DNA from: an uncultured Actinomycetota bacterium
GTDB lineage: Bacteria > Actinomycetota > Actinomycetes > Actinomycetales > Dermatophilaceae
Reading direction: 5' to 3'
Assembly: GCA_963834225.1 (NCBI GenBank)
Contig: CAWIAT010000009.1
Coordinates: 450,992 to 474,991 of the forward strand
DNA length: 24,000 nt
Part shown: one piece after another, positions 159 through 23,572 of the stretch
How the letters are laid out: every line of letters starts with the position of its first letter
Position numbering within the stretch: position 1 is the first letter of the stretch
Program-made: the position numbers and the translations under genes
The notes under the pieces: model-generated
Told to the model about the DNA's origin: nothing
The model's database searches: none
What the model saw: the letters and a program-made list of their open reading frames with translations, nothing else

Positions 159-307
159 GCTCTCTCCTCGCGAGCTGGAACTGCTCCGCGGGCGCACGAG
201 GGGTGACGAGGACGGCAGGAGGGCGGCGGAGACCGCCACCCGAGGACCCACCAGCTCCCGTCGGCCGTCCCGCGCGACCGTGGAGATGCCGCACCCGGGC
301 GGGCGCG

Positions 308-482
308 GCGCGACTGGCAGGTCTTCGGACTCGTGGGCGTGGCTCGCGCCTCCTACTGCCCGTCGCTTCCCAGGCCCGAAGGCCCAGTGCTCTCGTGACG
401 GGGGTCGTTCCCACTCACCGCTGCGGGGCAGTCCCGGACTCTCACCGGGTTCCCTCTTGCCCCACCACCCGCCCTGACGGCC
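308..482 (-). ncRNA. Cobalamin (AdoCbl/B12) riboswitch in the 5' leader of the nrd gene
   Basis: The reverse complement reads GGTGGGGCAAGAGGGAACCCGGTGAGAGTCCGGGACTGCCCCGCAGCGGTGAG...AGCACTGGGCCTTCGGGCCTGGGAAGCGACGGG...GAGTCCGAAGACCTGCCAGTC. This matches the conserved cobalamin-riboswitch core (AGGGAA..GGTGnnAnTCC..GCTGcCCCGCA, GCCACTG-like, GGGAAG) and the B12 box (AGyCnGgAGACCTGCC). About 150 nt of expression platform follows before the GAGGAG SD. Confidence 0.85.
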
Positions 483-505
483 GGGAGGTGGACCAGCTGC
501 GTGAC

Positions 506-553
506 CCACCATATGTGGGGGTCAGGACCCGGCGCGGGACCCACATGGTGTGG
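506..553 (-). promoter_or_regulatory. Two candidate NrdR boxes (CCAC-N5-GTGG palindromes) in the nrd promoter region
   Basis: The plus strand has CCACCATATGTGG (506-518) and CCACATGGTGTGG (541-553). Aligned to the published NrdR-box consensus acaCwAtATaTwGtgt, they match at about 10/16 and 9/16 positions. One alignment gives a centre-to-centre spacing of 32 bp, which is the typical tandem spacing. They lie between the hisD stop (567) and the riboswitch. Confidence 0.4.
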
Positions 554-4939: not shown

Positions 4940-6277
4940 TCAGAGTCGGGGCAGGTAGCGCTCGAGCTCGAAGGCCGTCACGGTGTTGCGGTAGTCGTTC
5001 CACTCCGCCCGCTTGTTGCGCAGGAAGAAGTCGAAGGTGTGCTCCCCGAGCGTCTCGGCGACGAGCTCGCTGCTCTCCATCACCGTGATGGCCTCGCTGA
5101 GGCTGGCGGGCAGCGGCTTGATGCCCATGGCCCGGCGCTCGGCGTCGGTGAGGCTCCAGACGTCGTCCTCGGTCTCGGGCGGGAGCTCGTAGCCCTCCTC
5201 GATCCCCTTCATGCCTGCGGCGAGCAGGACGGCGAAGGAGAGGTAGGGGTTGCACGCGGGGTCGATGCTGCGGACCTCGACGCGGCTGCTGTTGCCCTTG
5301 TTCGGCTTGTACATCGGCACCCGGACCAGGGCCGACCGGTTGTTGTGGCCCCACGTGAGGTGGGCGGGGGCCTCGCCGCCGCCCCAGAGCCGCTTGTAGG
5401 AGTTGACCCACTGGTTGGTCACCGCGGTGATCTCGGCCCCGTGGTGGAGCAGGCCCGCGATGAACTGCCGGGCGACCTTGGACAGCTGGTAGGGCGACCC
5501 CGGCTCGTGGAAGGCGTTGGTGTCGCCCTCGAAGAGCGAGAGGTGGGTGTGCATCGCCGACCCGGGGTGCTCGGCGAACGGCTTGGGCATGAAGGAGGCG
5601 AAGATGCCCTGCTCGAGGGCGACCTCCTTGATGACGGCGCGGAAGGTCATGATGTTGTCGGCGGTCGACAGCGCGTCGGCGTAGCGCAGGTCGATCTCGT
5701 TCTGGCCCGGGGCGCCCTCGTGGTGGCTGAACTCGACCGAGATCCCCATCGTCTCGAGCATCGAGATCGCGGCCCGACGGAAGTCGTGGCTGTTGCCGTG
5801 CGGGACGTGGTCGAAGTAGCCGGCCTCGTCGATCGGCTCGGGTCGCTGCCCCGGGACCCAGCCCTGCTTGAGGAGGAAGAACTCGATCTCGGGGTGGGTG
5901 TAGAAGGTGAAGCCCTGGTCGGCGGCCTTGGTCAGGGCCCGCTGGAGGACGTGCCGCGGGTCGGCCATGCTCGGCGTGCCGTCGGGCATCGTGAGGTCGC
6001 AGAACATCCGGGCCGTGCCGGGGCTCTCGCCGCGCCAGGGCAGGACCTGGAAGGTGCTCGGGTCGGGCTTGGCGAGCATGTCGGCCTCGTAGACCCGCGC
6101 GAAGCCCTCGATGACCGACCCGTCGAAGCCGATGCCCTCGGCGAACGCCCCCTCGAGCTCGGCCGGCGCGATGGCCACCGACTTCAGCGTGCCGAGCACG
6201 TCGGTGAACCAGAGCCGGACGAACCGGATGTCGCGCTCTTCGATGGTGCGGAGGACGAACTCCTGCTGACGGTCCAT
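4940..6277 (-). CDS. glnA2: Glutamine synthetase, type I, GlnA2-like
   Basis: MDRQQEFVLRTIEERDIRFVRLWFTDVLGTLKSVAIAPAELEGAF... is near-identical in pattern to the mycobacterial GlnA2 N-terminus. The ATG at 6277 is preferred over the upstream GTG at 6295. The glnA2-glnE tandem is conserved actinobacterial synteny. Confidence 0.95.
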   Translation of the reverse strand: MDRQQEFVLRTIEERDIRFVRLWFTDVLGTLKSVAIAPAELEGAFAEGIGFDGSVIEGFARVYEADMLAKPDPSTFQVLPWRGESPGTARMFCDLTMPDGTPSMADPRHVLQRALTKAADQGFTFYTHPEIEFFLLKQGWVPGQRPEPIDEAGYFDHVPHGNSHDFRRAAISMLETMGISVEFSHHEGAPGQNEIDLRYADALSTADNIMTFRAVIKEVALEQGIFASFMPKPFAEHPGSAMHTHLSLFEGDTNAFHEPGSPYQLSKVARQFIAGLLHHGAEITAVTNQWVNSYKRLWGGGEAPAHLTWGHNNRSALVRVPMYKPNKGNSSRVEVRSIDPACNPYLSFAVLLAAGMKGIEEGYELPPETEDDVWSLTDAERRAMGIKPLPASLSEAITVMESSELVAETLGEHTFDFFLRNKRAEWNDYRNTVTAFELERYLPRL

Positions 6278-6337
6278 GGTCCGATCCTGCCGCACCGGTG
6301 AGTCCTGCGGGTGACACCGACATGCTCCGGACAGGGC

Positions 6338-8831: not shown

Positions 8832-9040
8832 GTGGTCCTCCTGCGGTGTGGTGGTGGGACCGTGCCGCACACGAGGTAGACGCGGCGACACTGCCATCCG
8901 GGACGTTAGACCTCATCGGCCCGGTTCGCGCGGCGAGGAGCAGGTTGATTTCCGGTGTCGGCCCGTGCCCGCCGGACATCTGGCGGTGTGCGTGCCCTCT
9001 GGCCGCTCCCGCCCGCAGCCGCGCCTCCTAGGCTGTCCCC

Positions 9041-9922
9041 ATGAGCGAGCCGACGCCGTCGTCCACCACGCCCGCGCCCGAGACCACGGCGCCGTACGGC
9101 ACCGGGGCGCAGGCCGCGCCGCAGCGCCGGGTCCGGATCCCGCACCTGCTGCAGATGAAGGAGCGCGGCGAGCGGTGGGCGATGCTCACGGCCTACGACA
9201 TGTACACGGCCGAGATCTTCGACGGGGCAGGCATCCCCGTCCTCCTCGTCGGCGACAGCGCCGGCAACAACGTCTACGGCTTCGAGACCACGGTCCCGGT
9301 CACGGTCGACCACCTCGTCCCCCTCGTCAAGGCCGTCACGAGCGCGGCCCGCCACGCGATGGTCGTCGCCGACCTGCCGTTCGGCTCCTACCAGGCCAGC
9401 CCGCAGCAGGCGCTCGCCACCGCGACCCGGTTCATGAAGGAGGGGCTGGCCCACGCGGTCAAGCTCGAGGGGGGCAAGCCGATGGTCCCGGAGGTCGAGC
9501 TCCTCGTGCGGGCGGGCATCCCCGTCATGGGCCACATCGGGTTCACGCCGCAGAGCGAGCACGTCCTCGGTGGGTACAAGGTGCAGGGGCGCGGGTCGGG
9601 CGCCGACCGGCTGCTCGAGGACGCCCTCGCCCTCGAGGAGGCCGGCTGCTTCGCGGTCGTCATGGAGATGGTCCCCGCTCCCGCAGCCGCCCGGGTCACC
9701 GAGGCGCTGCGGATCCCGACGATCGGCATCGGGGCGGGCCCCCACTGCGACGCCCAGGTCCTCGTGTGGCAGGACATGGCCGGGCTCCGTGGTGGCCGGG
9801 CCCCCCGGTTCGTCAAGAAGTACGCCGACCTGCGGGGCTCGCTCCACGACGCGGCGGCGGCCTACGCCGCCGACGTCGCCGGCGGGACGTTCCCCGCGGC
9901 CGAGCACTCCTTCGACGCCTGA
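9041..9922 (+). CDS. panB: 3-methyl-2-oxobutanoate hydroxymethyltransferase
   Basis: The 293-aa ORF reads MLTAYD...LLVGDS..N...G...T..VT.D....H...V, ADLPFGSY and VKLEGG, which is typical PanB. The glnA2-protease-panB order echoes mycobacterial synteny. Confidence 0.95.
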
Positions 9923-9954
9923 AACCACGAGCACCGAGAGGACGTCGAACCGGC

Positions 9955-10599
9955 ATGTGGCCCATGGACACCCCCAACGCCCCGTCGCCCACGCGCTGGT
10001 CTGCGCTCCAGAGCGGACCCGAGGCGGCCGCCGCCTACCGGCGCCGCTTCCTCGACCTCGAACGCGCCGGTGAGGACCTCCACGGCGAGGCCCGTTTCGT
10101 CACCGAGCTCGCCCCGCCCCCCTCGCGCGTCCTCGACGCCGGGTGCGGCTTCGGCCGCGTCGCCTCTGAGCTGACCCGGCTGGGGCACACCGCGATCGGC
10201 GTCGACGCCGACGCCGACCTCGTGGCCATCGCGCGCTCCGAGGACGTCGACACCCGCTTCGTCGTCGCCGACCTGTCGCGGATGGACCTGCGGACCGAGC
10301 AGGAGTTCCACTGTGTCGTCATGGCCGGCAACGTCGTGCCCTACCTCGCCGACGGGACCCTGGGCGCGACCCTGGAGCGGCTCGCCGCCCACCTCGCGCC
10401 GCACGGCCACCTCGTCTCGGGGTTCGCCCTCGGCGGGTCGCTCCCCCGGGCCGCGGCCGCGGTCGACCTGCGGTCCTACGACCGGCTCGCCGACGCGGCC
10501 GGGCTGTCCTTCATCGGGCGCTGGTCGACGTGGGACAAGCAGCCGTTCGCCGAGGGCGGCGACTACGCCGTCTCGGTGCACCGGCGCCGCGCCGGCTGA
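9955..10599 (+). CDS. Class I SAM-dependent methyltransferase
   Basis: MWPMDTP...RVLDAGCGFGRVASELTRLGHTAIGVDADADLVAIAR contains motif I (DxGCGxG) and an acidic post-I residue. An alternative start is the ATG at 9964. It is the in-frame tail of the 8671-10599 ORF. Confidence 0.8.
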   Translation: MWPMDTPNAPSPTRWSALQSGPEAAAAYRRRFLDLERAGEDLHGEARFVTELAPPPSRVLDAGCGFGRVASELTRLGHTAIGVDADADLVAIARSEDVDTRFVVADLSRMDLRTEQEFHCVVMAGNVVPYLADGTLGATLERLAAHLAPHGHLVSGFALGGSLPRAAAAVDLRSYDRLADAAGLSFIGRWSTWDKQPFAEGGDYAVSVHRRRAG

Positions 10600-10616
10600 C
10601 CCTCGCCCCGGGCACG

Positions 10617-10699
10617 TTTCCCGCCGGATCCCGGAAGTGGGAGGTTCGCCCCACAAAGGAAGCCCTGTGAACCTGGGGCTTCCGGGATGCGGCGGGAAA
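10617..10699. repeat. Long imperfect inverted repeat (21-nt arms, 1 mismatch) with nested small hairpins between convergent genes
   Basis: The left arm TTTCCCGCCGGATCCCGGAAG (10617-10637) pairs with the right arm CTTCCGGGATGCGGCGGGAAA (10679-10699). The interior holds GTGGG-N8-CCCAC and an alternative 8-bp hairpin, GGAAGCCC-N10-GGGCTTCC (10658-10683), that competes for the right arm. Confidence 0.5.
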
Positions 10700-10723
10700 G
10701 GTGCGCATGGTGCGGGGTGGGAG

Positions 10724-10930
10724 TCAGTCTTCCTGCGACTCGGGGTCCCAGCTGCTGCCGGAGGCCCACTCCTTGTCCTCGCGGTCCCACTTCTCGGTGT
10801 TCTCGCGGGCCGAATGGAGCGCGTTCGCCGCGGCCTCCTCGCTGTCGTACGGACCCATGACGTTGGCGTCCTGGCTGCGGTCGTCGTCGGTCTCGACCTG
10901 GCCGGAGTCGACGTTGTACCAGTAGGGCAT
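10724..10930 (-). CDS. Small acidic conserved actinobacterial protein (68 aa), function unknown
   Basis: The sequence is MPYWYNVDSGQVETDDDRSQDANVMGPYDSEEAAANALHSARENTEKWDREDKEW.... A strong SD (GAGGAGGAA) lies just upstream of the ATG at 10930. The W/FYxVxTGxVE...GPY/F.S.EEA..AL pattern resembles small proteins seen in other actinobacteria, sometimes annotated SPOR-like. The upstream part of the 104-aa ORF looks non-coding. Confidence 0.6.
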   Translation of the reverse strand: MPYWYNVDSGQVETDDDRSQDANVMGPYDSEEAAANALHSARENTEKWDREDKEWASGSSWDPESQED

Positions 10931-10977
10931 CGGTTCCTCCTCGAATCGGGTGCTGCGGTCGTGCCTAGACTCACCGT

Positions 10978-11850
10978 ATGCCGTTGACGTACGCCTCCGT
11001 CGCCCCAGGGACGGTCTCTCCGCGCAGACCCGTCCCACCGAGCATCGAGCGACCCGAGTACGTCGACCGGCCGAGCCCTGCCCGCTACACCGGCCCCGAG
11101 GTCAAGGACGCCGAGACGATCGAGCGGATGCGCGTCGCCGGCCGGATCGCGGCCAACGCGATGGCCGCGGCGGCCGCCGTCATCGAGCCGGGCGTCACGA
11201 CCGACGAGATCGACCGGGTCGGCCACGAGTACCTGCTCGACCACGGCGCCTACCCCTCGACGCTGGGCTACAAGGCGTTCCCGAAGTCGCTGTGCACCTC
11301 GGTCAACGAGGTCGTGTGCCACGGCATCCCCGACGACCGGCGCCTCGAGGACGGCGACATCGTCAACATCGACATCACCGCGTTCATCGGGGGCGTCCAC
11401 GGCGACACCGACGCCACCTACCTCGTCGGCGAGGTCGACGAGGAGTCGCGCCTGCTGGTCGAGCGGACCGAGGAGGCGATGATGCGCGGCATCCGCGCCG
11501 CGCGCCCGGGCCGCGAGATCAACGTCGTCGGCCGGGTCATCGAGAGCTACGCCAAGCGGTTCGGCTACGGCGTCGTGCGCGACTTCACCGGGCACGGGAT
11601 CGGCACGGCGTTCCACAGCGGCCTCATCGTCCCGCACTACGACGCGGCGCCGCGGTACGACACCATCATCGAGGCGGGCATGACCTTCACGGTCGAGCCG
11701 ATGCTCAACCTCGGCACGCACGAGTGGGACATGTGGGACGACCGGTGGACGGTCGTCACGAAGGACCGGCGCCGGTCGGCACAGTTCGAGCACACCATCC
11801 TGGTCACCGACCACGGACCCGAGATCCTCACCCAGGGAGACGCAGCATGA
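10978..11850 (+). CDS. map: Methionine aminopeptidase, type Ic (with N-terminal PxxP extension)
   Basis: The 290 aa closely parallel M. tuberculosis MetAP1c: ...[16 protein letters not shown]..., [37 protein letters not shown] and [10 protein letters not shown]. Confidence 0.95.
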
Positions 11851-12626
11851 GCACCGGACACCCCCTCGGCATCGACGTCGGCGGCAGTGGCATCAAGGGC
11901 GCACCCGTCGACCTCGACAAGGGCGAGTTCGCCCGGAAGCGGCTGCGCATCGACACCCCTGACGTCTCGACCCCCGAGGCCGTCTGCGACGTCATCGCGC
12001 AGGTCGTCGACCACTTCGACGAGGTCCGCAGCGACTCCCCCATCGGGGTGACGATCCCCGGCGTCGTCCAGCACGGTGTCGTCAAGACCGCGGCGAACAT
12101 CGACAAGTCCTGGGTCGGCTGCGAGATCGAGAAGCTCCTCGAGGACCGCCTCCAGCACGACGTCGTCGTCGTCAACGACGCCGATGCCGCGGGGGTCGGC
12201 GAGCTGCACTTCGGTGCGGCGAAGGGCCACGAGGGCCTGGTCATCCTCACGACCCTCGGCACCGGTATCGGCACGGCCATCTTCAACCGCGGTGTGCTCG
12301 TGCCGAACTCGGAGCTCGGGCACCTCGAGATCGACGGCGTCGACGCCGAGACCATCGCCGCGTCGTCGGCGAAGACCCGTGAGGAGCTCACCTACCCGCA
12401 GTGGGCCGAGCGGCTCCAGCAGTACTACCGGCGCCTCGAGGACCTCCTGTGGCCCGACCTCATCGTCGTCGGCGGCGGGGTGTCCAAGGACGCCGACCAG
12501 TTCCTGCCGCTCCTCGACCTCCGCACGAAGATCATCCCGGCGACGCTGAAGAACAAGGCGGGCATCATCGGCGCCGCCGTCCTCGCGACCGGCGTGCAGA
12601 ACGAGCGCGGGCGCCACACCACCTGA
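11847..12626 (+). CDS. ppgK: Polyphosphate glucokinase (ROK family)
   Basis: The sequence reads [23 protein letters not shown]..., [21 protein letters not shown] and ELGHLEIDG. The ATG overlaps the map stop (ATGA). The product is 259 aa. Confidence 0.9.
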
Positions 12627-12649
12627 CCGGCGGCCGCCCGCCCGACGCG

Positions 12650-13309
12650 CTACTCCCCTGCGCGGAACTCGGTCGCGCCCTGCCCAGCCAGGTCGTGCAC
12701 CCGCGTGTCGGGCGACCCGAGCTGCCCCGCCTGGCCGAGGTAGAGCCCTCGACCGCGCGCCTGGAGCAGCCCGTCGTGCACCGGCACCGCGTGCGGTGAA
12801 CCGAACCGGCGCAGGAACGCCGTCATGTCGCGGCTGCGCTGCCACGGAGCCTGGAGCGGGAACGCGAGCACGTCGATGTCACCCGGCTCGGCGTCGAGGG
12901 CGTCGCCCGGGTGGAAGAACGACGGCTCGCCGTCGGCGTCGAGGCGCACCCCGACGTTGCTGATCCGCGGGATGTCGTCGTGGATGAGGGCGTGCTGCTC
13001 GCCGAAGGGCGTCACGGTGACGCCCCCCACCGTGCTCGCACCCCCGGCGTGCTCGCGCGCCTCGATGCCGAGCTTCGCCAGCACCTCGACGCTCTGCGGG
13101 TCGCAGAGGACGACGGCGCCCGGGTTGGCCGCGACGACCGACGGGAACCGGTCGGGGTCGAGGTGGTCGGGGTGCTGGTGGGTGACGAGGACGGCGTCGA
13201 GGTCGGTGACCCCGGAGAGGTCGTCGGAGAAGGCGCCCGGGTCGATGAGGATGCGGGTGTCGGCCATCTCCACGAGGAGGCAGGCGTGACCGAGGTGGGT
13301 GAGCAGCAT
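12650..13309 (-). CDS. MBL-fold metallo-hydrolase
   Basis: MLLTHLGHACLLVEMADTRILIDPG...VLVTHQHPDHLD carries the HxHxDH motif. The product is 219 aa from the ATG at 13309. The longer 341-aa ORF N-terminus is low-complexity and implausible. Confidence 0.85.
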   Translation of the reverse strand: MLLTHLGHACLLVEMADTRILIDPGAFSDDLSGVTDLDAVLVTHQHPDHLDPDRFPSVVAANPGAVVLCDPQSVEVLAKLGIEAREHAGGASTVGGVTVTPFGEQHALIHDDIPRISNVGVRLDADGEPSFFHPGDALDAEPGDIDVLAFPLQAPWQRSRDMTAFLRRFGSPHAVPVHDGLLQARGRGLYLGQAGQLGSPDTRVHDLAGQGATEFRAGE

Positions 13310-13394
13310 GTCCCCACCGTAGGCCGCCGAGCACGGCCGCAGCGGCCGAGGGTCCCGCCGAGGGCGAGCCGAGGTCAGGCGGCGCCGGAAGGCG

Positions 13395-14087
13395 TCAGCC
13401 GACGACCGGCTCGGCGCCGTTGCCCGAGCGGTCCCGTGCGGCGCCGGGAGGAGTCGCGCTCCTGACGGCGTCGACGGTGACCGCGGCCAGCCGCAGGTCG
13501 CGGGGCAGCACGGTCGTCGAGGGAGGGGGGGTCGGCAGTGCGTGGGCGCCCTCACCGGCGAGGAACAGCGGGACGCGCGCGCCGAGCCGCGACAGCGACG
13601 GCACCCGCGACTCGAAGGCCGAGCGCCGCACCCCCGCGAGGACGACGGCGTCGGCGCCGAGGAAGCGCACGGCATCGGCGACCGCCGTCATCGGGGTGTT
13701 GGCGCCGAGGCTGACGACGCGCCACCACCGGGCGTGGAGCATCGCGCCGAAGAGCTCGAGCGGCAGGTCGTGCAGCTCGCGCGGAGGGCAGGCGAGGACG
13801 ACGGTGCGCACCTGGCCGCCCTGGACGGGCATTCGCAGCTCGCCGAGGACGCCACGGAAGGCGCTGGAGACGAAGTGCTCGTGGAGCACCCCCAGCTCGC
13901 CGCTCTCCCAGCCGTCCCCGACCTCCTTGAGCACCGGCATGATGACGCGGGTCACGGTGTCGTCGACACCGGAGACGAGGAGGGACTGGAGCAGGGCGTC
14001 GCGCACCGTCCCGCCGTCGAGGTCGCGGACCGCGGCCATGACCGTCGCGCGCGCGTCGGCGGGGCCGAAGTGCGGCGACTCGCTCAT
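13395..14087 (-). CDS. Stand-alone cobalamin-binding photoreceptor-like protein (CarH/LitR C-terminal module, no HTH domain)
   Basis: The 230 aa from MSESPHFG align by eye to the T. thermophilus CarH light-sensing module. IMPVLKEVGDGWESGELGVLHEHFVSSAF contains the Wx9EH AdoCbl motif. VVLACPPRELHDLPLELFGAML...GADAVVLAGV corresponds to the ExHxxG-type lower-ligand His region and Rossmann B12-binding domain. No MerR-type HTH occurs upstream in any frame. An alternative start is at 14171. Confidence 0.8.
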   Translation of the reverse strand: MSESPHFGPADARATVMAAVRDLDGGTVRDALLQSLLVSGVDDTVTRVIMPVLKEVGDGWESGELGVLHEHFVSSAFRGVLGELRMPVQGGQVRTVVLACPPRELHDLPLELFGAMLHARWWRVVSLGANTPMTAVADAVRFLGADAVVLAGVRRSAFESRVPSLSRLGARVPLFLAGEGAHALPTPPPSTTVLPRDLRLAAVTVDAVRSATPPGAARDRSGNGAEPVVG

Positions 14088-14559
14088 CGGCGTCCCGCGA
14101 TCTGGCTGGGTTCCACGCCTGAACGGTACGGCACGAACACCCCCCTGAACGCTTGTCGCCGTCCGGGTCATCGCAGGTCAGGGCCCCCGACAGCGCCTCG
14201 ACACGGGGGTCCGGGCTCGTCCACTCGGCCGAAGGGGGCCGCCGTTCGGACGATCTGCGGGGAAAAAGTCGCCGTTCTCGCCCGCCGAGGTGGAACAGTC
14301 CTCCTCAGGTCGACCGACGGACCCCCTGCACCGGACGTCGACCACCGACCGGCACCAGTCCGGTCAAGGACCCCGGTGCGCCGGAGTCGCCGCGTTCCCC
14401 CTGCCCGCGGCGACACCAAACCGACGCACCGGGGTCGACCGCTGTCCGGGCCCGGGGCGAGGACCAGCGAGCGGCCGCTGCATCACCATCACGCTCGACA
14501 GGTGAGCGCCCAGACTTCCCCCTGGCGCGGGCGGTCGGCGGGTCGCCCATACTGACCGG

Positions 14560-15357
14560 ATGACGAGCAACGAGCATCCCCTCCGCACGTCGCTGGACGC
14601 CGCTTCGGGGGTCGACGAGGCCCGGCTGGTCGACGTCAGGCGGTGGAACCTGGGTCTGACGGTGCTCCACGCCGTTCAGGCGCTCGCCGTGCTGGTCCTC
14701 GCCTCGGACTTCGCCATCGACGTGTCCACGGCCTTCCCCGAGGGCCCGCCCGGCAGCCGTGTCCCACAACCCTCGGTTGCCTTCAGCGTGCCCATCGGCG
14801 TGGCCGTCGCCGCCTTCCTGGCGCTGGCTGCCCTCGACCACGGCGTGACGGCCACGGTGCTCCGCTCCCGTTACGAGGGCGACCTGACGGCCGGGATCAA
14901 CCGGTTCCGCTGGGTCGAGTACTCGTTCAGCGCCACGATCATGATCCTGCTCATCGCCTTCTACGCCGGGATCACCCAGGTTGCCGCTGCGATCACGATC
15001 ATCGGGAGCAACGTGGCGATGATCCTCTTCGGGTGGCTCCAGGAGCGCATGAACCCGCCCGGCCGCGCGTCGACCACGATGCTGCCGTTCTGGTTCGGTT
15101 GCATCGCCGGTGCCGCCCCGTGGGTCGCGATCACCCTCAACATCGTCGGGTCCGAGACGGTCCCCGGCTTCGTCTACGGCATCTTCATCTCGCTGTTCGT
15201 GTTCTTCATGTCCTTCGCCCTCAACCAGTACCTGCAGTACCGCCAAGTCGGTCCATGGCGCTCCTACGCCTTCGGGGAGAAGGTGTACCTGGTGCTGAGC
15301 CTGGGCGCGAAGTCCGCGCTCGCCTGGCAGATCTTCGCTGGATCCCTGGCTGGGTGA
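14560..15357 (+). CDS. Heliorhodopsin (inverted-topology microbial rhodopsin)
   Basis: The 265 aa show block-wise near identity to heliorhodopsin 48C12: FRWVEYSFSATIMILLIA, MILFGWLQER, LPFWFGCIAGAAPW, VPGFVYGIFISLFVFFMSFALNQYLQY and YLVLSLGAKSALAWQIFAGSL. The Schiff-base Lys (K251, codon 15310-15312), counterion Glu (E120 in RWVEYS) and the two conserved His (H37, H94) are all present. Confidence 0.9.
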   Translation: MTSNEHPLRTSLDAASGVDEARLVDVRRWNLGLTVLHAVQALAVLVLASDFAIDVSTAFPEGPPGSRVPQPSVAFSVPIGVAVAAFLALAALDHGVTATVLRSRYEGDLTAGINRFRWVEYSFSATIMILLIAFYAGITQVAAAITIIGSNVAMILFGWLQERMNPPGRASTTMLPFWFGCIAGAAPWVAITLNIVGSETVPGFVYGIFISLFVFFMSFALNQYLQYRQVGPWRSYAFGEKVYLVLSLGAKSALAWQIFAGSLAG

Positions 15358-16019
15358 GGCAGGCCGACCACGAACGGGTGAGAGGTGCGGCGCCTCCGGA
15401 CGGTGGCACCGGGCCCGGAACCACCACCCGACCCGAGGCGAGGCGAGGACGCCCTGCGCTCGTGGTCCGGTACGGCGCCCTGGTGGACGAGTCGGGCTGT
15501 AGGCCGGGTTTGGCTCAACACGGTTGGTATTGATGCCGTCCAGGACGCGCCACACGGCCGGCGGGCGAAACCGGGCCCGTGCGTGTGCCGCGAGGCCGGT
15601 GGCCGAGGGCCATAGGAGTGCGGCGCCAGTTCCCGCCGCGATCGCCCATCGGGCCGAGGTGTTGGCGCAGACGTCGGTATGGCTGTACCTCGTGTCGTGG
15701 CTGACATTCGGCCTCCTGCGCCCACGGGCCGGGTCCCCACACTCGTCGCCGGCGCTTCCTGACGGCGGCGCGAATAAGGCAAGCCAGGTCGTCCCTAGCG
15801 CCCCACGGGCGTCAGAACCCTGACCCGGCCAGGTCAGGGAGGCGGCTCGAGGAGGTCGCCTGCCCGGGACAAGGTCTCGCGGGCCTGGCGGACCGTCGCC
15901 GGTCGAGCATCGCCCCATCCGCACCCCGGACGGCACCGTCGCCACTCGCGAGCCCCGCCTGGTAGGAGGCGACGACCTGTCGGGCTGCCCACAACTCGGC
16001 GCGCGTGACGTCACGGCGC

Positions 16020-16415
16020 TGCGCCACGAGAGCACCAGGCCCGACCCGACGACGATGCCGACGAGCGCGGTCCGCGAGGGGCGCGAGCCGAGGGCAAGCC
16101 CGATCGCGAGCGCCCACAACGGCATGCTGGCAATGAGGAGGGAGGCGAGCCCGCTGTCGACGTGCTGCTGTCCCAAGGTGAGCAGGGTGCTGCCGCCCCC
16201 CACGAGGAGGAGCCCCACGAGCGCGGCCGACCGCACCTCCCTGGCGTCCGGCCAGACGCGGCGGCCGAGCAGGGCGGCGCCACGAGGATGAGGGTGCCGG
16301 CCGTGAGGAAGCGTGAGCTCGTGAGCAGCATCGGGGGCAGGGACTCCAGCGCCACCTTGTTGCCGACGTACGTCCCGCCCCACAGGAGGTAGACCCCCAT
16401 GAGCGCGAGCGCCAC
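16020..16415 (-). pseudogene. EamA/DMT-family transporter remnant (frameshifted, 3' half missing)
   Basis: From the GTG at about 16415, the first frame reads VALALMGVYLLWGGTYVGNKVALESLPPMLLTSSRFLTAGTLILVA. At about 16275-16285 the reading switches to another frame: ALLGRRVWPDAREVRSAALVGLLLVGGGSTLLTLGQQHVDSGLASLLIASMPLWALAIGLALGSRPSRTALVGIVVGSGLVLSW. Only about 135 aa (one 5-TM EamA repeat) are recognisable, and similarity ends near 16020. Confidence 0.65.
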
Positions 16416-16467
16416 TGCCCCACCCCGCGCCGAGGGGTGCGGGGTCAGGTGGGTGGCATTCGTCGTC

Positions 16468-16899
16468 TCAGGCACGGCCCACCACGGTGGTCTCGACACG
16501 GACGTTGCCGCGGGTCGCCTTCGAGTAGGGGCACATCGTGTCCGCGAGGGCGACGAGCTCCTCGAGGACGGCCTGGTCGCACTCTGGCGCCGTGACGGTG
16601 AGGACGACCGAGATCGAGTATTGGTTGTCCGGGGTCGCATGGAGCGACACGGCGCCGGTCGTCGTCGACTGCCCGAGCGACACGCTTCGGCGCCGAGCCG
16701 CACCCGCGAGGGCGCTGTCGAAGCACGCGGCATAACCCGCCGCGAAGAGCTCCTCCGGATCGGTGCCGCCTGCGGTGCCGCGCTGGGCGGGGCGGGAGAG
16801 CGAGAGGTCCAGCGAGCCGGACTCGGAGACCGCACGACCGCCCCGTCCCCCAGAGACGGACACGACCGCGGTGTACAGCGTCGTCGTGTCGGTGCTCAT
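16468..16899 (-). CDS. ohr: Organic hydroperoxide resistance protein (OsmC/Ohr family)
   Basis: The 143 aa include GGTDPEELFAAGYAACFDSAL and the C-terminal TMCPYSKATRGNV, the two conserved Cys contexts of Ohr. The ATG overlaps the upstream gene's stop (ATGA). Confidence 0.9.
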   Translation of the reverse strand: MSTDTTTLYTAVVSVSGGRGGRAVSESGSLDLSLSRPAQRGTAGGTDPEELFAAGYAACFDSALAGAARRRSVSLGQSTTTGAVSLHATPDNQYSISVVLTVTAPECDQAVLEELVALADTMCPYSKATRGNVRVETTVVGRA

Positions 16900-17729
16900 G
16901 AGGCACCCCCGGGGACACGGGAGCGGTTGAACGCGTGGGTCCAGCGCGCGACGGCCCGCGTGAACTCCGCGGGGTGCTCGTCCGGGGAGAAGTCCGTGCC
17001 CGGGACGACGTCGAGCTCGGCCCAGGGCAGTGCTGCGGTGACGACGTCCGTGAAGCGGTCCACGAGGTCACGGTCGCCGTGCACGAGGGCGATCGGCACC
17101 GCGCGTAGGGCCTCGGCGTCCACCTCGTACTCGAAGACGGCGCGGTAGGCCGTGGCGTAGTCGGGTCCGGTGGCCAGGTACTCGAGCACCTGGCGGTTGC
17201 ACTCGTCGAGGGCCAGCTCGGGGTAGAGGCCCTGGACCCGATCCCAGATCACCCGCAGGTGGGACCCGTCCAGCGACGGCTCGTACCCCGGCGCGTAGGT
17301 CCGCTTCTTCTCCTCACGCTCGGCCCTCGAGTACAGCGGCAGGCCCTGGAGGACCAGGCCGTGCACGCGGTCGGGCTGCTGCACGGCGGCCTCGCAGGCC
17401 ACGACGGCGCCGGTGTGCTGCCCGAGGATGGTGAGGTCGCCGAGCCCGAGGGCGTCGGCCACCTGCCAGGTCGCCTCGGCGTACTGCTCGATCGACCACG
17501 GCTCTGGGGTCGGGTCGGACATGCCGAAGCCCGGAGTGTCGATGGCGACCGCGTGGATCCCCTGGTCGGACAGGGGCTGAAGCACGACCTCGAAGGTGGC
17601 CGACGACAGCGGCGACTGGTGGAGCAGGAGGAGGGTCGCGCCATCAGCGTCACCGGCCCGGCGGACGTGCACCTGTCCCCACGGCATCCGGACGTAGGAA
17701 CGCTCGGAGCTCCCTCGGAGGTTCCTCAT
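16896..17729 (-). CDS. Alpha/beta-hydrolase-fold protein with non-canonical nucleophile and oxyanion motifs
   Basis: The 277 aa have an alpha/beta-fold layout (LLLLHQSP..., DTPGFGMSD, ...LTILGQHTGAVVA, ...HGDRD). The GxSxG elbow reads G-Q-H-T-G (17409-17423) and the HG motif reads HQ. The ATG overlaps the M20 stop (ATGA). Confidence 0.8.
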   Translation of the reverse strand: MRNLRGSSERSYVRMPWGQVHVRRAGDADGATLLLLHQSPLSSATFEVVLQPLSDQGIHAVAIDTPGFGMSDPTPEPWSIEQYAEATWQVADALGLGDLTILGQHTGAVVACEAAVQQPDRVHGLVLQGLPLYSRAEREEKKRTYAPGYEPSLDGSHLRVIWDRVQGLYPELALDECNRQVLEYLATGPDYATAYRAVFEYEVDAEALRAVPIALVHGDRDLVDRFTDVVTAALPWAELDVVPGTDFSPDEHPAEFTRAVARWTHAFNRSRVPGGAS

Positions 17730-19090
17730 CGGTCCTGCTCCACTGCCATCGCAGCCATGACGGCGATGACGTGGCGGATCCCGTCGCGGTAGTCGTCGAG
17801 GCGGATGTTCTCATTGGGTCCGTCGATGCCGGCGTCGGCGCGCGAGACGCCCACCCCGACGATGGGCAGCCCGGCGAGGACTCCCTGGTTGCCGATCCAC
17901 TGGGTCCACGGCTCGATCACCGGCTCGGTGCCGTAGATCTCCCGTGCCGTGTCGGCGACGAGACCGACGAACGGGTGGTCGTGGGCCGTGCGGTTCGGCC
18001 GGCTCATCGCCATGACGTCGACGGCGACGTCGTCGTACCTCTCCTCGACCAGGTGCTTCTGCACCGATGCCAGGACGGTCTCCGGGTCCTGACCAGGGAC
18101 GAGGCGGATCTCGACCTTCGCCCAAGCGGTGGCGGGGATCCCGAGGGTCACGTCGTCCCGGCGGTCTCCACCCTCGATACCGGCGATGGTGAGGGTCGGC
18201 TTCGTGCGGATGGCGGCTGCAGCGGCCGGGCCGTCCTCACCATGGCGGAAGGTGTCGACACCGGCGCGGCCCTTGAGGAAGTCGACGTCGAACGGAAGCG
18301 CCGCGAGGAGGGCGGCCTCCTCGGGAGTCGGCTCCTCGACCCCGTCGGCGAAGCCGTGCACGGCGCAGTCGCCGTGCTCGTCTACGAGGGTGCCGAGCGC
18401 GCCGACGAGGCGGGTCGTCGCCGAGGGCAGCAGGGCCGTGTTCTGGCTCGTTAGCTCGCGGGCGATGGTCTGCACCGAGAGGCGCAGGTAGAGGACACCC
18501 TTCTCGGACAACTTGAGCAGGAGCCGGTCCTCGTTGTCGACCCACGAGTTCTCCCAGAGGGCGGCATCGCTCTCGAGCTGCTCGTGGTGCGCCTCGACGA
18601 AGCTCCCAAGGCCGGGGCTGTGCAGCCACTGCTTGCCCTCGATGATGAAGCGCGAGGTGACGGGCGCCTCCTGCCCCGACAGGCGCCACGCCGCGGCGGC
18701 GTGGATGCGCGACATGATCGCTCCTTTGTCGTCGGCGACACCTCGGGCGTAGAGCCGGCCGTCCACGACCTCGCCGGCGTACGGCGGCACGATCCACGCG
18801 TCGTCGTCACCGGTCGGCTCGACCTCGACGTCGTAGTGGGTGAAGTGCAGCAGGCGCACGGGGCCTCCGGCCACCTCGCCGATGACGTAGGGGTGGGAGT
18901 CGTCCCAAGGCACGACCGACGACGTCCCGCCCCAGCGGCGCAGTGACGCGGCGAGGAAGTCGGCGGTCAGCGCCATCTGCTCCGGCTCGTGCCGACGACT
19001 ACGGAACCGGCACAGCTCCTGGAGCTCGGCGACGAACTCGTCGAGGTGCTCGTCGACCGCGGCGAGGGCGGCGGCCTTGTCGAAGGACAT
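17726..19090 (-). CDS. M20-family metallopeptidase/amidohydrolase (ArgE/DapE/ACY1/CPG2 type)
   Basis: The 454 aa include LLHFTHYDV (metal-binding His), RLYARGVADDKGAI (Asp bridging ligand/DDKG) and a dimerisation-domain-sized insert. Confidence 0.9.
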   Translation of the reverse strand: MSFDKAAALAAVDEHLDEFVAELQELCRFRSRRHEPEQMALTADFLAASLRRWGGTSSVVPWDDSHPYVIGEVAGGPVRLLHFTHYDVEVEPTGDDDAWIVPPYAGEVVDGRLYARGVADDKGAIMSRIHAAAAWRLSGQEAPVTSRFIIEGKQWLHSPGLGSFVEAHHEQLESDAALWENSWVDNEDRLLLKLSEKGVLYLRLSVQTIARELTSQNTALLPSATTRLVGALGTLVDEHGDCAVHGFADGVEEPTPEEAALLAALPFDVDFLKGRAGVDTFRHGEDGPAAAAAIRTKPTLTIAGIEGGDRRDDVTLGIPATAWAKVEIRLVPGQDPETVLASVQKHLVEERYDDVAVDVMAMSRPNRTAHDHPFVGLVADTAREIYGTEPVIEPWTQWIGNQGVLAGLPIVGVGVSRADAGIDGPNENIRLDDYRDGIRHVIAVMAAMAVEQDR

Positions 19091-19101
19091 GGGGACTCCT
19101 G

Positions 19102-19875
19102 TCAGTGAATGGTGGCGCCGCCGTCGACAAAGACGGTCTGTCCGGTGACCATCGACGCGGCGGGGCTCAGCAGGTAGGTGATGGTGTCGGCGACGTCCTG
19201 TGCCTCGGCCATCCGGCCGAGGGGGATCGAGCCGAGCTTGTCGTCCATATACGCGCCGTCACCGCGCACGTCCGAGGTCATGTCGGTGGGGACGATGGTG
19301 GGGCCGACGGCGTTGACGCGGATGCCGTCGGGCGCCCACTCCAGGGCGAGGACACGTGCCATGTGCATGACGGCCGCCTTGCTCACGCAGTACCCGAGGG
19401 TGTTGGTGACCGCGATGTAGCCGTTGGTGGAGCCGAGGTTCACCACGGTCCCGTGGGCCTTACGCAGCGCGTGGTAGGCGGCGGTGGTGACCCGGAACGT
19501 GCCCACCACGTTGACGTCGAGGACGGTGGAGACGTCCTCGTCCGACATCTGTGTGGCGAGGCCGCGGCGAACGATCCCGGCGTTGTTAACGAGGTGGTCC
19601 AGCCGGCCGTGGGTCGCGACGACCTCGGCGACGAGGGCCCGGCACGACGCGGCGTCACGGACGTCGACCGCATGGCGGCTGTGTCCGTCCTCCTCCGCGC
19701 CCAGGCCGTGCTCCCACGCGTTGGTGGGGAGCAGGTCGGCCATGGCGACCGTCGCACCACGACCCGCGAGGGTCGCCGCCACGACGGCTCCGATGCCACG
19801 TGCGGCCCCCGTCACGAGCGCCACGCGGCCCGTGAAGTCGTATGGGTCGGGCCGACCGCTCTCGATCGTGCTCAC
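19102..19875 (-). CDS. SDR-family oxidoreductase
   Basis: From the GTG at 19875 the sequence reads VSTIESGRPDPYDFTGRVALVTGAARGIG (TGxxxGIG), NNAG and YCVSKAAV (YxxxK). The start overlaps the permease stop (GTGA). The product is 257 aa. Confidence 0.9.
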   Translation of the reverse strand: MSTIESGRPDPYDFTGRVALVTGAARGIGAVVAATLAGRGATVAMADLLPTNAWEHGLGAEEDGHSRHAVDVRDAASCRALVAEVVATHGRLDHLVNNAGIVRRGLATQMSDEDVSTVLDVNVVGTFRVTTAAYHALRKAHGTVVNLGSTNGYIAVTNTLGYCVSKAAVMHMARVLALEWAPDGIRVNAVGPTIVPTDMTSDVRGDGAYMDDKLGSIPLGRMAEAQDVADTITYLLSPAASMVTGQTVFVDGGATIH

Positions 19876-20756
19876 GCCGCGATCACCCGGCTCTCCTCCG
19901 CCCAGAAGGCCACCTTGCGCTGGATGAAGCGGATGAGCGTGTGGGCGATAAGTCCCATGAGGGACAGGACGACCAGCACCGCAAACATGCCCGCGATGTC
20001 GAAGTTGTAGTTGGTCTGGAGCAACAGGTAGCCCAGGCCCTCCTGCGCGCCGATGAACTCGCCGACTACCGCGCCGAGGATGGCGAAGACGATGCCGATG
20101 TCCAGGCCCGCGAAGATGAACGGCATCGCGCTGGGCAGCCGCACCATCCGGAAGATCTGGGTCCGGCTGGCCCCGAACACCGTGAGCATCTGGACCCGGT
20201 CCGCCTCGGCCGAGCGCAGGCCCTCGATGACGTTGATGAGCATCGGGAAGAAGGAGATGACCGCCGCCATGACGACCTTGCTCGTCAGGCCGAAGCCGAA
20301 CCACACGACGAAGAGCGGGGCGAGGGCGACCTTGGGCACCGTCTGGAACATGACGACGTAGGGCATCAGGGTCTTCTCGAGGAGGCTGACCTGCGAGATG
20401 GCGGTGCCGAGGATCAGGGCCGTCGCGACGCCGATGGCAAAACCGAGCAGCGCCTCCTGGCTCGTCACGAGCAGGTGCCGCCAGAAAAGAGCGCTCTCCA
20501 GCTGCATGAGCAAGCTCTCGAAGACCTGGCTCGGGGGCGGCAGGACGAAGTCCTCGACGCCGAGGAGGTCGACGCCGAACTCCCACACCGCAATGACGAG
20601 GACGAACAGGCCGGGGATGAGCCAGACCTCGGGCCGCTCTCGCGGGTCGAGGCGGCTCCAGCGGCTCGGGGTCGCGGCGGTAGGGGCGTCGGCCGCAGCG
20701 CTGTCGGTGATGTCGCCGGTGTCGGCGGGCTCTTGGTTCGTCACGTTGGTGTCCAT
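19872..20756 (-). CDS. ABC transporter permease (NitT/TauT - nitrate/sulfonate/taurine-type family)
   Basis: The 294 aa are multi-TM and SsuC/TauC-like, with an EAA-loop region (GLRSAEADRVQMLTVFGASRTQIFRMVRLPSAMPFIFAGL). Confidence 0.9.
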   Translation of the reverse strand: MDTNVTNQEPADTGDITDSAAADAPTAATPSRWSRLDPRERPEVWLIPGLFVLVIAVWEFGVDLLGVEDFVLPPPSQVFESLLMQLESALFWRHLLVTSQEALLGFAIGVATALILGTAISQVSLLEKTLMPYVVMFQTVPKVALAPLFVVWFGFGLTSKVVMAAVISFFPMLINVIEGLRSAEADRVQMLTVFGASRTQIFRMVRLPSAMPFIFAGLDIGIVFAILGAVVGEFIGAQEGLGYLLLQTNYNFDIAGMFAVLVVLSLMGLIAHTLIRFIQRKVAFWAEESRVIAA

Positions 20757-20764
20757 GGCCGTCC

Positions 20765-21595
20765 TCAGTCGATGACGCTCTGCGCGTTGAAGTACTTGCG
20801 GATGCGGTCCACATAGACCCCCGCCTGGTCGCTCGACATGACGCCGAGCGACCGGGGGCGGGGGATGTCGATCTCCATGACCTCGGCGATCCGACCGGGC
20901 CGAGGGCTCATGACAACGACCCGGTCGGAGAGGAAGACCGCCTCGGGGATGGAGTGGGTGACGAGGACGATGGTCGCCTCACTCTCCTTCCAGATCCGGA
21001 GCAGCTCGACGTTCATGTACTCGCGGGTCATGGCGTCGAGGGCGCCGAACGGCTCGTCCATGAGGAGGACGGCGGGGTCGTGCACCAGCGCCCGGCAGAT
21101 CCCGGCTCGCTGTTGCATCCCCCCGCTCAGCTCGAACGGGTACTTGTCCTCGAAGCCGGTGAGCCCCACGAGGTCGAGGAGCTCCTGAGCCCGCTGCCGG
21201 TGCTTGGTGCGGTCCAGCTTCTGGATCTCGGCCGGCACCATGACGTTGTCGATGATGGAGCGCCAGGGCAGCAGGGTCGCTGCCTGGAACACCATCCCGA
21301 CCTCGCGCAGGGGCCTGGTTACGTCGGTACCCGCGATAGACACCTTCCCCTCCGTCCGGGGGCTGAGCCCCGCGAGGATCTTCAGCAGGGTCGTCTTGCC
21401 GCAGCCCGAGGGACCGACGATCGAGACGAACTCCCCACGGCGGACGCTGAAGTTGATGTCCGACAGCGCGTGGGTGGGTTCCGACCGCTTGGGCCGGTAG
21501 ACCTTGTGGAGTCCGGACACCTCGATCCACGAGGCGTCGCCGGTGGCGTCTGCGGCGGCACCGGAGGTGCTGCTCGAGAGAACGACCTGGCTCAT
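20765..21595 (-). CDS. ABC transporter ATP-binding protein (NitT/TauT family)
   Basis: Walker A is GPSGCGKTT, the signature is LSGGMQQR and Walker B is LLMDEPFGALD. The product is 276 aa. Confidence 0.95.
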   Translation of the reverse strand: MSQVVLSSSTSGAAADATGDASWIEVSGLHKVYRPKRSEPTHALSDINFSVRRGEFVSIVGPSGCGKTTLLKILAGLSPRTEGKVSIAGTDVTRPLREVGMVFQAATLLPWRSIIDNVMVPAEIQKLDRTKHRQRAQELLDLVGLTGFEDKYPFELSGGMQQRAGICRALVHDPAVLLMDEPFGALDAMTREYMNVELLRIWKESEATIVLVTHSIPEAVFLSDRVVVMSPRPGRIAEVMEIDIPRPRSLGVMSSDQAGVYVDRIRKYFNAQSVID

Positions 21596-21644
21596 CGGGT
21601 CACTTCCTTCGGGGGTGGGGTCATGACGGGGTGTGACGCTCAGG

Positions 21645-22769: not shown

Positions 22770-22787
22770 AGTGGAGATTCCTTCGGG

Positions 22788-23261
22788 TCAGGAAACGGGT
22801 GTGGTGTGGGCCGGGGTCTGGGGCGTGGTGCTGTCGTTTGTGGTGCCGTCCGTGGCGGGTGGTGCGGTGGGTGGCGGTGCTGCGAGGACGGGGACACGGA
22901 ACCCGTACTCACTAAGGTCGTTCCAGACGAGCTGCTCGACGATGAGGCCGTTCCGGACGACGAAGACATCGACGTACCGGATGTCCTCGAAGGTGGTGCC
23001 GTCGAGCCGTTCGCCGTACAGGCGGCCGATCGACGTGACGACAGTCGAGTCGCCCTCGGTGCCGACGGCGAACCGGTCGCGGTTCTTCCGCACCCACGTG
23101 TACGACTTCGGCGCGGCAACCAGCTCGGCCAAGGACCCGTACACCTCCCCGGCGGGGAACTGGATGCGGACCGAGGGGGCAAGGTGCGCTACCGCGGCCT
23201 CGACCTCGCGGTCCTCGCAGAGCTGGAGGTACCGGTCGACGAGGGCGGCGGCGTCGTTCAC
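22788..23261 (-). CDS. NTF2/SnoaL-like small protein with Pro/Thr-rich C-terminal tail
   Basis: The preferred GTG start at 23261 overlaps the upstream stop (GTGA), giving (M)NDAAALVDRYLQLCEDREVEAAVAHLAPSV...VDVFVVRNGLIVEQLVWNDL, an NTF2-like alpha+beta cone pattern. The tail is AAPPPTAPPATDGTTNDSTTPQTPAHTTPVS. An alternative ATG is at 23294. Confidence 0.55.
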   Translation of the reverse strand: MNDAAALVDRYLQLCEDREVEAAVAHLAPSVRIQFPAGEVYGSLAELVAAPKSYTWVRKNRDRFAVGTEGDSTVVTSIGRLYGERLDGTTFEDIRYVDVFVVRNGLIVEQLVWNDLSEYGFRVPVLAAPPPTAPPATDGTTNDSTTPQTPAHTTPVS

Positions 23262-23572
23262 GACTCCGACTTGGTGGCGAGGGCCGAATCCCACTGCTCG
23301 CGCAGCGGGTGCTCGGCGGGGCCGTTCTCGGTGATGATCCGCACCAGGCGGGCCATGTAGGCGGTACGGGTGTCGTCCAGGACGCGCGCCTCCTTCTCTT
23401 GGGGGGTGAAGGCGTCGAGCTCACCCTCGGAAAGGACGCCCTGACGGACCAGGAGCGCCTCAAGGGCCCGAACGCGGTGGGTCGCGACGTGGAGGTCGGT
23501 CGCGAGCTGAAGCACGAGGTCGAATAGCTTCGAGGTCTCGGGCGAGCTGAGGTAGCGGAACTCGTCGGCCAT
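23258..23572 (-). CDS. Hypothetical helical protein, 104 aa, no family recognised
   Basis: The sequence is MADEFRYLSSPETSKLFDLVLQLATDLHVATHRVRALEALLVRQGVLSEGELDAFTPQEKEARVLDD.... The ATG at 23572 overlaps the upstream methyltransferase stop (ATGA). Coding-like composition and translational coupling on both sides support it. The 150-aa ORF N-terminus is Arg-rich junk. Confidence 0.5.
   Translation of the reverse strand: MADEFRYLSSPETSKLFDLVLQLATDLHVATHRVRALEALLVRQGVLSEGELDAFTPQEKEARVLDDTRTAYMARLVRIITENGPAEHPLREQWDSALATKSES

Follow-up and report, generated by a model that had tools for sequence, protein, structure and literature searches.

The question raised by this locus is whether an isolated rhodopsin-like gene in the genome of an uncultured member of the Dermatophilaceae encodes a working light-responsive protein, and how this gene came to stand where it does. 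The DNA analysed, referred to below as the window, comprises 24,000 nucleotides (contig CAWIAT010000009.1 of GenBank assembly GCA_963834225.1, positions 450,992 to 474,991 of the forward strand), and the gene under study is predicted to encode a heliorhodopsin (HeR). Taken as a whole, the locus is best explained, with a probability of about 0.85, by a functional HeR resembling the characterised protein 48C12, which would be encoded by a stand-alone and probably leaderless gene, would obtain its retinal from elsewhere, and would belong to an accessory cassette located in a variable slot.

14560..15357, plus strand: coding sequence of the heliorhodopsin (PF18761, NF038020 and PDB 6su3 matches; residue checks; ratio of nonsynonymous to synonymous substitution rates, dN/dS)

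The heliorhodopsin and its retinal pocket

The open reading frame (ORF) starts with an ATG and occupies exactly positions 14560-15357 (+), encoding 265 amino acids followed by a stop codon. Its start codon is secure, since no alternative in-frame ATG, GTG or TTG is found between the opening of the frame at 14506, after an upstream stop codon, and position 14560, and since the two closest relatives (loci L001 and L033) align with the protein from residue 1. A Pfam profile search retrieved PF18761 (E-value 1.2e-99; 333 bits versus a cut-off of 26.7) over profile positions 2-242 of 242, and the NCBIfam equivalog model for HeR (NF038020) was matched with 275.5 bits, versus a cut-off of 100. Six PDB sequences were matched at an E-value of 1 or below, all of them heliorhodopsins, the best being the 48C12 entries (6su3; E-value 1.9e-69), followed by TaHeR (6e-52) and the eukaryotic Cv06 (4e-42). 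At the same threshold, neither the type-1 rhodopsin family (Bac_rhodopsin) nor any other Pfam family matched the ORF. Only heliorhodopsin models were matched by the family search, a best match to type-1 rhodopsins was absent, and the retinal-binding lysine was kept in the alignment.

The residues around the chromophore were compared with those of 80 related HeR loci (L001-L080) and of 48C12. The Schiff-base lysine is K251 (codon 15310-15312; K241 in 48C12), located within the run AKSALAWQIF, and its column is invariant in the 80 relatives; the core positions are all invariant across this alignment. The counterion is E120 (codon 14917-14919; E107 in 48C12), and S247 corresponds to S237 of 48C12, which stands in place of Asp212 of type-1 rhodopsins; the roles of E107 and S237 in 48C12 have been described (PMC7049168). 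Similarly, H37 and H94 align with H23 and H80 of 48C12. The original prediction, made from the sequence alone, had proposed an intact heliorhodopsin with a complete retinal pocket and had named K251, E120, H37 and H94; it was borne out by the family profiles, the PDB matches, the Schiff-base lysine, the counterion and both histidines, each aligned with its 48C12 equivalent. The protein has seven helices, and its lysine and arginine residues are distributed 13:1 in favour of the side formed by the N-terminus and the BC, DE and FG loops, which, under the positive-inside rule, fits the inverted topology of the family, with a putatively cytoplasmic N-terminus. In addition, dN/dS values of 0.19-0.22 were obtained versus two relatives that are 85% identical, and the gene is under purifying selection. 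The gene encodes a genuine, intact heliorhodopsin of a common actinobacterial type.

Identity to 48C12 amounts to 52% over 236 aligned positions, being 38% in transmembrane helices TM1-TM2 and 60% in TM3-TM7. The earlier description of the protein as block-wise near identical to 48C12 holds for a series of exact blocks (FRWVEYS, MILFGWLQE, LPFWFGCIAG, VPGFVYGI and QYLQY, besides the lysine-containing run), but not for TM3-TM7 or the protein overall. When 40 residues named as structurally important in 48C12 (PMC7049168) were mapped onto the window protein, 31 turned out to be identical. These include the Schiff-base environment (K251, E120, S247 and S124), the polar cavity (H37, H94, N30, Y105, N114, R117, Y121 and E240, corresponding to H23, H80, N16, Y92, N101, R104, Y108 and E230 of 48C12) and the cluster E162/Q223/Q226/Y236, of which E162 and Q223 correspond to E149 and Q213 of 48C12. 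Furthermore, W256 is the counterpart of W246.

The nine remaining residues differ, namely S76A, S112A, S113T, N207M, I170A, Y179N, L227A, D127Q and P40D, written as the 48C12 residue and number followed by the window residue (so that N207M refers to M217 here, codon 15208-15210). Seven of them are the commonest or frequent variants among the 80 relatives and not idiosyncratic: S76A was found in all 80, S113T in 79, S112A in 78, Y179N in 74 and L227A in 69, I170A is the most frequent residue in its column, and position 207 is occupied by phenylalanine in 47 relatives, by methionine in 16 and by asparagine in 12. D127Q (five relatives) and P40D (one relative) are rare and fall at variable positions. 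The changes at position 207 and at S76 are variants at the level of the clade and may influence the binding of lipids or carotenoids, or the colour. A lateral fenestration and proposed carotenoid-binding site has been linked by Kornilov et al. (2025 preprint) to an aromatic pair (positions 162 and 206 of 48C12), Gly169 and non-bulky residues at positions 166 and 210; this pattern is present in the window protein (F177/F216, G184, C181 and A220). The asparagine at position 207, described as highly conserved in structural papers and, according to the same preprint, typical of HeR fenestrations and not strictly required, is replaced by M217.

Transcription start, cassette and rnpB slot

14548..14553, plus strand: CATACT, a -10-like hexamer located 6 nt before the ATG

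It had been noticed from the sequence that the ATG has no obvious Shine-Dalgarno site and that a CATACT hexamer ends 6 nt upstream of it, an arrangement compatible with a leaderless transcript. Indeed, no purine run resembling a Shine-Dalgarno site was found, and the hexamer is present. CATACT, a 6-nt spacer and the start codon recur in L001 and L033, the upstream DNA of these genes being otherwise unrelated. In other relatives, TAGGTT, TAGGCT or GATACT is found with this spacer, and in a further subset clear GGAGG-type sites take the place of such a hexamer. When ANNNT was counted by its distance from the start codon, it was encountered in 16 of the 80 loci with a 6-nt spacer, in five with a spacer of 7 nt and in about two at other offsets. 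As the spacing of the hexamer is the geometry expected for transcription starting at the A of the ATG, the HeR gene probably gives rise to a leaderless mRNA, with CATACT as the -10-like element. The conservation of this hexamer and the peak at the 6-nt spacer strengthen the leaderless reading of the window gene, and suggest that a subset of actinobacterial HeR genes may be leaderless.

The position of the gene was examined by comparison with four relatives, of which L081, L083 and L084 are sibling contigs of metagenome-assembled genomes (MAGs; ENA ERZ250395xx) and L082 is Oryzobacter terrae. The features involved are the following.

13398..14171, minus strand: CarH-type B12-binding light-sensor module, divergent neighbour of HeR, annotated start probably 14087 (Pfam B12-binding_2 and B12-binding)
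14361..14441, either strand: very stable hairpin in the conserved flank (minimum free energy -54.5 and -62.9 kcal/mol on the two strands, z-scores -5.6 and -5.8)
14466..14559, plus strand: cassette-specific upstream region, a putative promoter, with no counterpart in the sibling genomes
15358..15484, plus strand: 3' untranslated spacer forming the downstream tail of the cassette, retained in L081 beside an HeR stub
15485..15510, minus strand: 26-nt remnant of the 3' end of rnpB (RNase P RNA), 100% match to positions 361-386 of L082 rnpB
15511..16009, no strand assigned: orphan junction DNA of about 500 bp, between the rnpB remnant and a truncated EamA gene
16010..16450, minus strand: EamA transporter gene, truncated to residues 1-130 of about 333 and frameshifted (tblastn against L085; Pfam EamA fragment)

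All four relatives share the synteny to the left of HeR, consisting of the genes for the B12-binding protein, a metallo-beta-lactamase (MBL)-fold protein, a ROK protein, map, a methyltransferase, panB and an M6 peptidase, and glnA and glnE are shared as well where the retrieved locus reaches that far (L081, L083 and L084). The synteny of the window with its siblings ends at the rnpB remnant, and no HeR gene was called in any of the four loci. In L081, L083 and L084, many genes (panB, the MBL-fold gene, glutamine synthetase (GS), the M6 peptidase and Cys_Met_Meta_PP) are split into two or three pieces; such splits resemble long-read indel errors, so that single frameshifts, including that of the EamA remnant of the window, need caution.

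Homology with L081, L082 and L083 ends at about 14455-14465, and the region 14466-14559 has no nucleotide match in any of the loci retrieved. Over window positions 3364-14465, L081 is 94.7% identical at the nucleotide level; about 850 bp are then skipped, after which the match resumes between window positions 15317-15510 and L081 positions 9609-9422 (84.5%; blastn). Positions 9570-9634 of L081 correspond to window positions 15317-15357, which hold the final 13 codons of HeR and its stop codon, with synonymous changes only, and roughly 150 bp of spacer is kept downstream of this stub. Since both stub and spacer are retained, the ancestor of L081 had HeR at this site and deleted it, and the comparison indicates a recent deletion of about 850 bp. 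In O. terrae, the same left flank is followed by about 26 nt and then by rnpB, with no HeR at the site. The HeR gene is accessory and has been lost from close relatives; it occupies a cassette of roughly 1 kb (14466-15484), set between the conserved core flank and the 26-nt rnpB remnant. Its 3' spacer contains no significant RNA structure (z-score -0.11) and no terminator-like site in an intrinsic terminator scan, and no convincing repeats were found bounding the cassette.

An intact rnpB stands at the equivalent place in L081 (9062-9448) and L082 (9220-9606; Rfam RF00010, 286-287 bits), whereas none was detected with Rfam in the window. In L084, an intact rnpB (3214-3593) precedes an integrase ORF, beyond which about 4.5 kb of DNA with a lower GC content extends to a 35-nt stretch (8138-8172) repeating the 3' end of rnpB; the ORF matches the tyrosine-integrase catalytic box (PF00589, E-value 9e-4) as a fragment below the Pfam cut-off. 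Similarly, an integrase-like fragment (E-value 0.017, also below the Pfam cut-off) abuts rnpB (6817-7202) in L083, accompanied by 2.4 kb of DNA with 65.5% GC. An intact target gene, an integrase and a 3' direct repeat, the hallmarks of an integrated island, are all present in L084, its integrase being fragmentary, while of these the window shows the 26-nt repeat alone. Taken together, the stretch separating rnpB from the B12-binding gene is a hypervariable slot, and the 3' end of rnpB appears to behave as an attachment site or integration hotspot in this lineage. As rnpB does not accompany HeR in any of the other 80 HeR loci, the placement of HeR beside it is lineage-specific. The hairpin at 14361-14441 (inverted repeat I8) is conserved in L081 and L082; given its place just past the 3' end of rnpB in the ancestral arrangement, it probably serves as the terminator of rnpB.

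To the right of the rnpB remnant, the orphan DNA (15511-16009) had no match in any locus retrieved. A 99-codon ORF of doubtful coding character (15524-15823, +) lies within it. Window positions 16010-23996 are collinear with positions 13091-5129 of L085 (78% nucleotide identity; blastn), and the collinear cluster (window 16010-24000, minus strand) contains genes for a methyltransferase, a SnoaL-like protein, an NMT1-type ATP-binding cassette (ABC) importer, a short-chain dehydrogenase/reductase (SDR), an M20 peptidase, an alpha/beta hydrolase, OsmC and EamA, the window copy starting abruptly inside EamA. In L085, the cluster is flanked by an HTH_17 and integrase pair and, on the other side, by a transposase fragment. 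The nearest named relatives of the M20 peptidase are from Nocardioides and Streptomyces, not from Oryzobacter or Phycicoccus. The HeR cassette thus has the conserved core on one side and a series of recombination scars on the other. It is conceivable, though at present a tentative proposal, that the rnpB 3' end of this lineage of Dermatophilaceae is a hotspot for integrase-bearing elements and that HeR is a small, leaderless light-sensor cassette gained and lost there and exchanged among soil Actinobacteria; the nearest named relatives of the HeR cassette are from Nocardioides, and likewise those of the adjoining acquired segment.

The composition of the gene was examined as well, because the original prediction had left open whether its lower GC content reflected membrane-protein content or foreign origin. 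The low-GC lines had been sampled accurately, as four of the 14 lines of 60 nt of the gene have 57-63% GC, and the GC content of the whole gene is 67.3%, versus 71.4% for the window. The GC contents at the first, second and third codon positions are 0.62, 0.48 and 0.92, respectively, and third-position values (GC3) of 0.85-0.98 were found for the neighbouring genes. The dip reflects the amino acid content of a membrane protein and not foreign codon usage, so that the first of the two explanations holds. Composition was rejected as evidence of a foreign origin, since a GC3 of 0.92 lies within the range of the neighbours and, with a GC2 of 0.48, leaves no compositional sign of it; the synteny, however, places the gene in a variable slot.

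Function, chromophore and candidate partners

By analogy with the family, the window HeR would bind all-trans-retinal at K251 and absorb green light near 550 nm, upon which the retinal would isomerise and a slow photocycle without net ion transport would follow. This photocycle may alter the cytoplasmic surface of the protein and thereby modulate a partner protein through the arginine-rich cytoplasmic loops. The most likely mechanism would be the general one of the family, namely that of a light-dependent regulator of a partner protein; a regulatory, non-pumping function and known partners of HeRs have been described (PMC9529153, PMC11109279 and PMC7049168).

The HeR gene is a stand-alone transcription unit, because its upstream neighbour is divergent and the gene remnant downstream lies on the opposite strand. 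The majority of helR genes have been found to lack co-transcription with an adjacent gene (PMC11109279), and the window gene fits this majority class. The operon partners listed in the same study are GS, NAD synthetase, photolyase, MerR, TerC, an ABC transporter, SDR, an alpha/beta hydrolase, DUF2177 and DUF2238. Among these, the SDR, alpha/beta hydrolase, ABC and GS genes of the window are situated 1.5-9 kb from HeR, on the other strand. No recurrent neighbour was found when 16 neighbours encoded in the window were searched with tblastn against the 80 HeR loci, and an unbiased clustering of the neighbours within four genes of HeR in these loci gave, as the best result, a generic SDR-like cluster present in 11 of them.

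Several observations weigh against the overall explanation of a functional, leaderless, stand-alone HeR. No crtE, crtB, crtI, crtY, blh or other carotenoid or retinal genes were found among the GC3-supported ORFs of the 24 kb, as assessed by Pfam assignment and inspection, and no partner gene occurs in the window in the operon or the orientation of HeR, the DNA downstream being non-coding before the opposite-strand remnants begin. A generic sigma-70 promoter scan found nothing at HeR, and CATACT is imperfect as a -10 hexamer, with a C at position 1. Furthermore, the loss in L081 shows that HeR is dispensable, and the second-shell differences from 48C12 (S76A, S112A, S113T and N207M) imply that spectral or kinetic properties may differ. 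The absence of blh and crtEBIY from the 24 kb had been anticipated in the original prediction, which the Pfam assignment of the ORFs upholds; retinal must either be made by genes in another part of the genome or be taken up from the surroundings. It was found by Chazan et al. (bioRxiv 10.1101/2021.02.16.431466) that blh genes are rare among HeR neighbours and that HeR and blh co-occur mostly where another rhodopsin exists, and they suggest an unrecognised retinal pathway in some Actinobacteria. The absence of neighbouring blh and crt genes is the published norm for HeRs and no peculiarity of this locus.

The missing retinal genes have also to be considered together with the possibility that HeR is a relic, decaying or devoid of chromophore and without present function, as a sibling genome has deleted HeR, O. 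terrae lacks it at the site, and the gene lies amid recombination scars (the rnpB fragment, the truncated EamA gene and the orphan DNA). Against such decay stand the full-length frame with every core residue intact, a dN/dS of about 0.2 versus relatives, the native GC3 and the presence of a conserved promoter-like hexamer, which make a relic quite unlikely. That the protein is a light-driven ion transporter instead of a sensor or regulator is suggested by the proton transport reported for viral HeRs, according to the passages citing it in PMC11109279 and PMC12873467. However, the HeRs that transport ions are members of the divergent viral subfamily 2, in which the pocket differs and the fenestration motif is missing (PMC7049168; 2025 preprint), whereas the window HeR has a core of the 48C12 type and a hydrophobic extracellular half, and 48C12 showed no translocation (PMC7049168). 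Ion transport is consequently regarded as very unlikely, and a light-dependent regulator remains the preferred reading.

The question of the partner concerns the genes around HeR. Besides the features given above, the window contains the following.

3..about 298, minus strand: ATP-cone ORF, running off the window
299..512, minus strand: cobalamin riboswitch (RF00174, 84 bits), upstream of the ATP-cone ORF
1938..about 4940: glnE
4940..6295, opposite strand to HeR: glnA
10724..11038: small unannotated ORF of about 104 amino acids
12650..about 13290: MBL-fold gene, following the B12-binding gene
Further genes of the window: hisD, M6 peptidase, panB, methyltransferase, map and ROK protein
Remaining genes of the window: OsmC/Ohr, alpha/beta hydrolase, M20 peptidase, SDR, NMT1-type ABC importer (three genes), SnoaL-like protein and a second methyltransferase

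The ORF behind the riboswitch, with an ATP-cone at its N-terminus, probably encodes a B12-repressed ribonucleotide reductase, by analogy with nrdAB of Streptomyces. The B12-binding neighbour of HeR matches CarH of T. thermophilus (5c8a; E-value 6e-14), with the Wx9EH motif and the histidine ligand aligned, and is a stand-alone module without a MerR helix-turn-helix or other DNA-binding domain. It is 100% identical to a database protein, with orthologues in Oryzobacter, Phycicoccus, Ornithinibacter and Fodinibacter, and it forms with the MBL-fold gene a pair that is conserved in the first three of these genera. These orthologues place the source of the window among the Dermatophilaceae/Intrasporangiaceae actinobacteria.

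Two candidates for a partner deserve weighing. HeR and the CarH-type protein may form a functional two-photoreceptor unit through a shared regulatory region or a physical interaction, given that their genes are divergently oriented neighbours whose starts are separated by about 390-470 bp, that the CarH-type neighbour has the photoreceptor-specific motif and histidine ligand and, lacking a DNA-binding domain, would need a partner, and that MerR-family (LitR-like) regulators are a published class of HeR neighbours (PMC11109279). Yet the B12-binding and MBL-fold genes keep this synteny in L081, L082, L083 and L084, where no HeR accompanies them, a B12-binding match, and a weak one, occurs near only one of the 80 other HeRs, and the cassette boundary at 14466 and the strong hairpin separate both genes. 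This unit is therefore considered highly improbable; the neighbour was rejected as the partner of HeR because its pairing with the MBL-fold gene is conserved where HeR is lacking, and their adjacency is best read as coincidence. A bolder variant of the hotspot proposal, in which the cassette is kept through cooperation with the adjacent CarH-type B12 module, is unlikely. The other candidate is GS, the product of glnA, both glnA and glnE being present in the window. The HeR of Actinobacteria bacterium IMCC26103 (AbHeR) binds GS via K216, a positively charged residue of its cytoplasmic FG loop, and both genes share an operon (PMC9529153). In our own numbering, in which E105 and S235 of AbHeR equal E107 and S237 of 48C12 (an offset of two), K216 corresponds to R228 of the window protein, so that the charge is kept. 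However, glnA lies on the opposite strand at a distance of about 8.3 kb, with seven genes between, as part of a housekeeping block (glnA-glnE-panB-map) that relatives lacking HeR also keep, unlike the shared operon of the published case, and a GS-like gene occurs within 10 kb in just one of the 80 related HeR loci. Regulation of GS by the window HeR is hence an unlikely reading, and a light-dependent regulator encoded by a stand-alone gene remains favoured.

Significance and comparison with known systems

To a specialist, neither the protein nor the missing retinal genes hold anything surprising, as the family is already covered by Pfam, NCBIfam and crystal structures. The added value of the locus lies in the presence/absence series at the apparent rnpB-linked hotspot, in the comparative evidence for leaderless transcription and in the stand-alone CarH-like module. 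Across near-identical genomes, the series runs from the intact gene through a stub of 13 codons to a site of only about 26 nt, and it is usable for asking what HeR does in a soil actinobacterium.

Among known systems, the arrangements of rnpB in L084, L083 and the window resemble the islands found at the 3' ends of genes for small stable RNAs, for which tRNA and tmRNA genes serve as attachment sites. They differ in that the target is rnpB, that the integrase matches are fragments below the cut-off, and that the window shows one end of an insert. As to the protein, 48C12, which originates from a freshwater actinobacterial fosmid and of which structures at 1.5 angstrom are available (PDB 6SU3, 6SU4 and 6UH3), aligns over its full length with the window HeR, the latter having an N-terminus that is 14 residues longer and a shorter EF loop. 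The HeRs of Nocardioides kribbensis DSM 16314 (L033) and of a Dermatophilaceae MAG (L001) have the same length and 85% amino acid identity over all 265 residues, but their gene neighbourhoods are wholly unlike that of the window, with neither rnpB nor a B12-binding gene nearby. Finally, AbHeR and OcHeR, the latter from Ornithinimicrobium cerasi, are characterised regulatory HeRs (PMC9529153 and PMC11109279), the genes of which are located in operons with those of their partners (GS and the ABC exporter OmrDE, respectively), whereas the window gene stands alone. A positively charged FG loop is common to HeRs of the AbHeR/OcHeR type and the window HeR, and since this charge is kept, the expected mode of action of the latter would be the light-dependent modulation of a bound partner.

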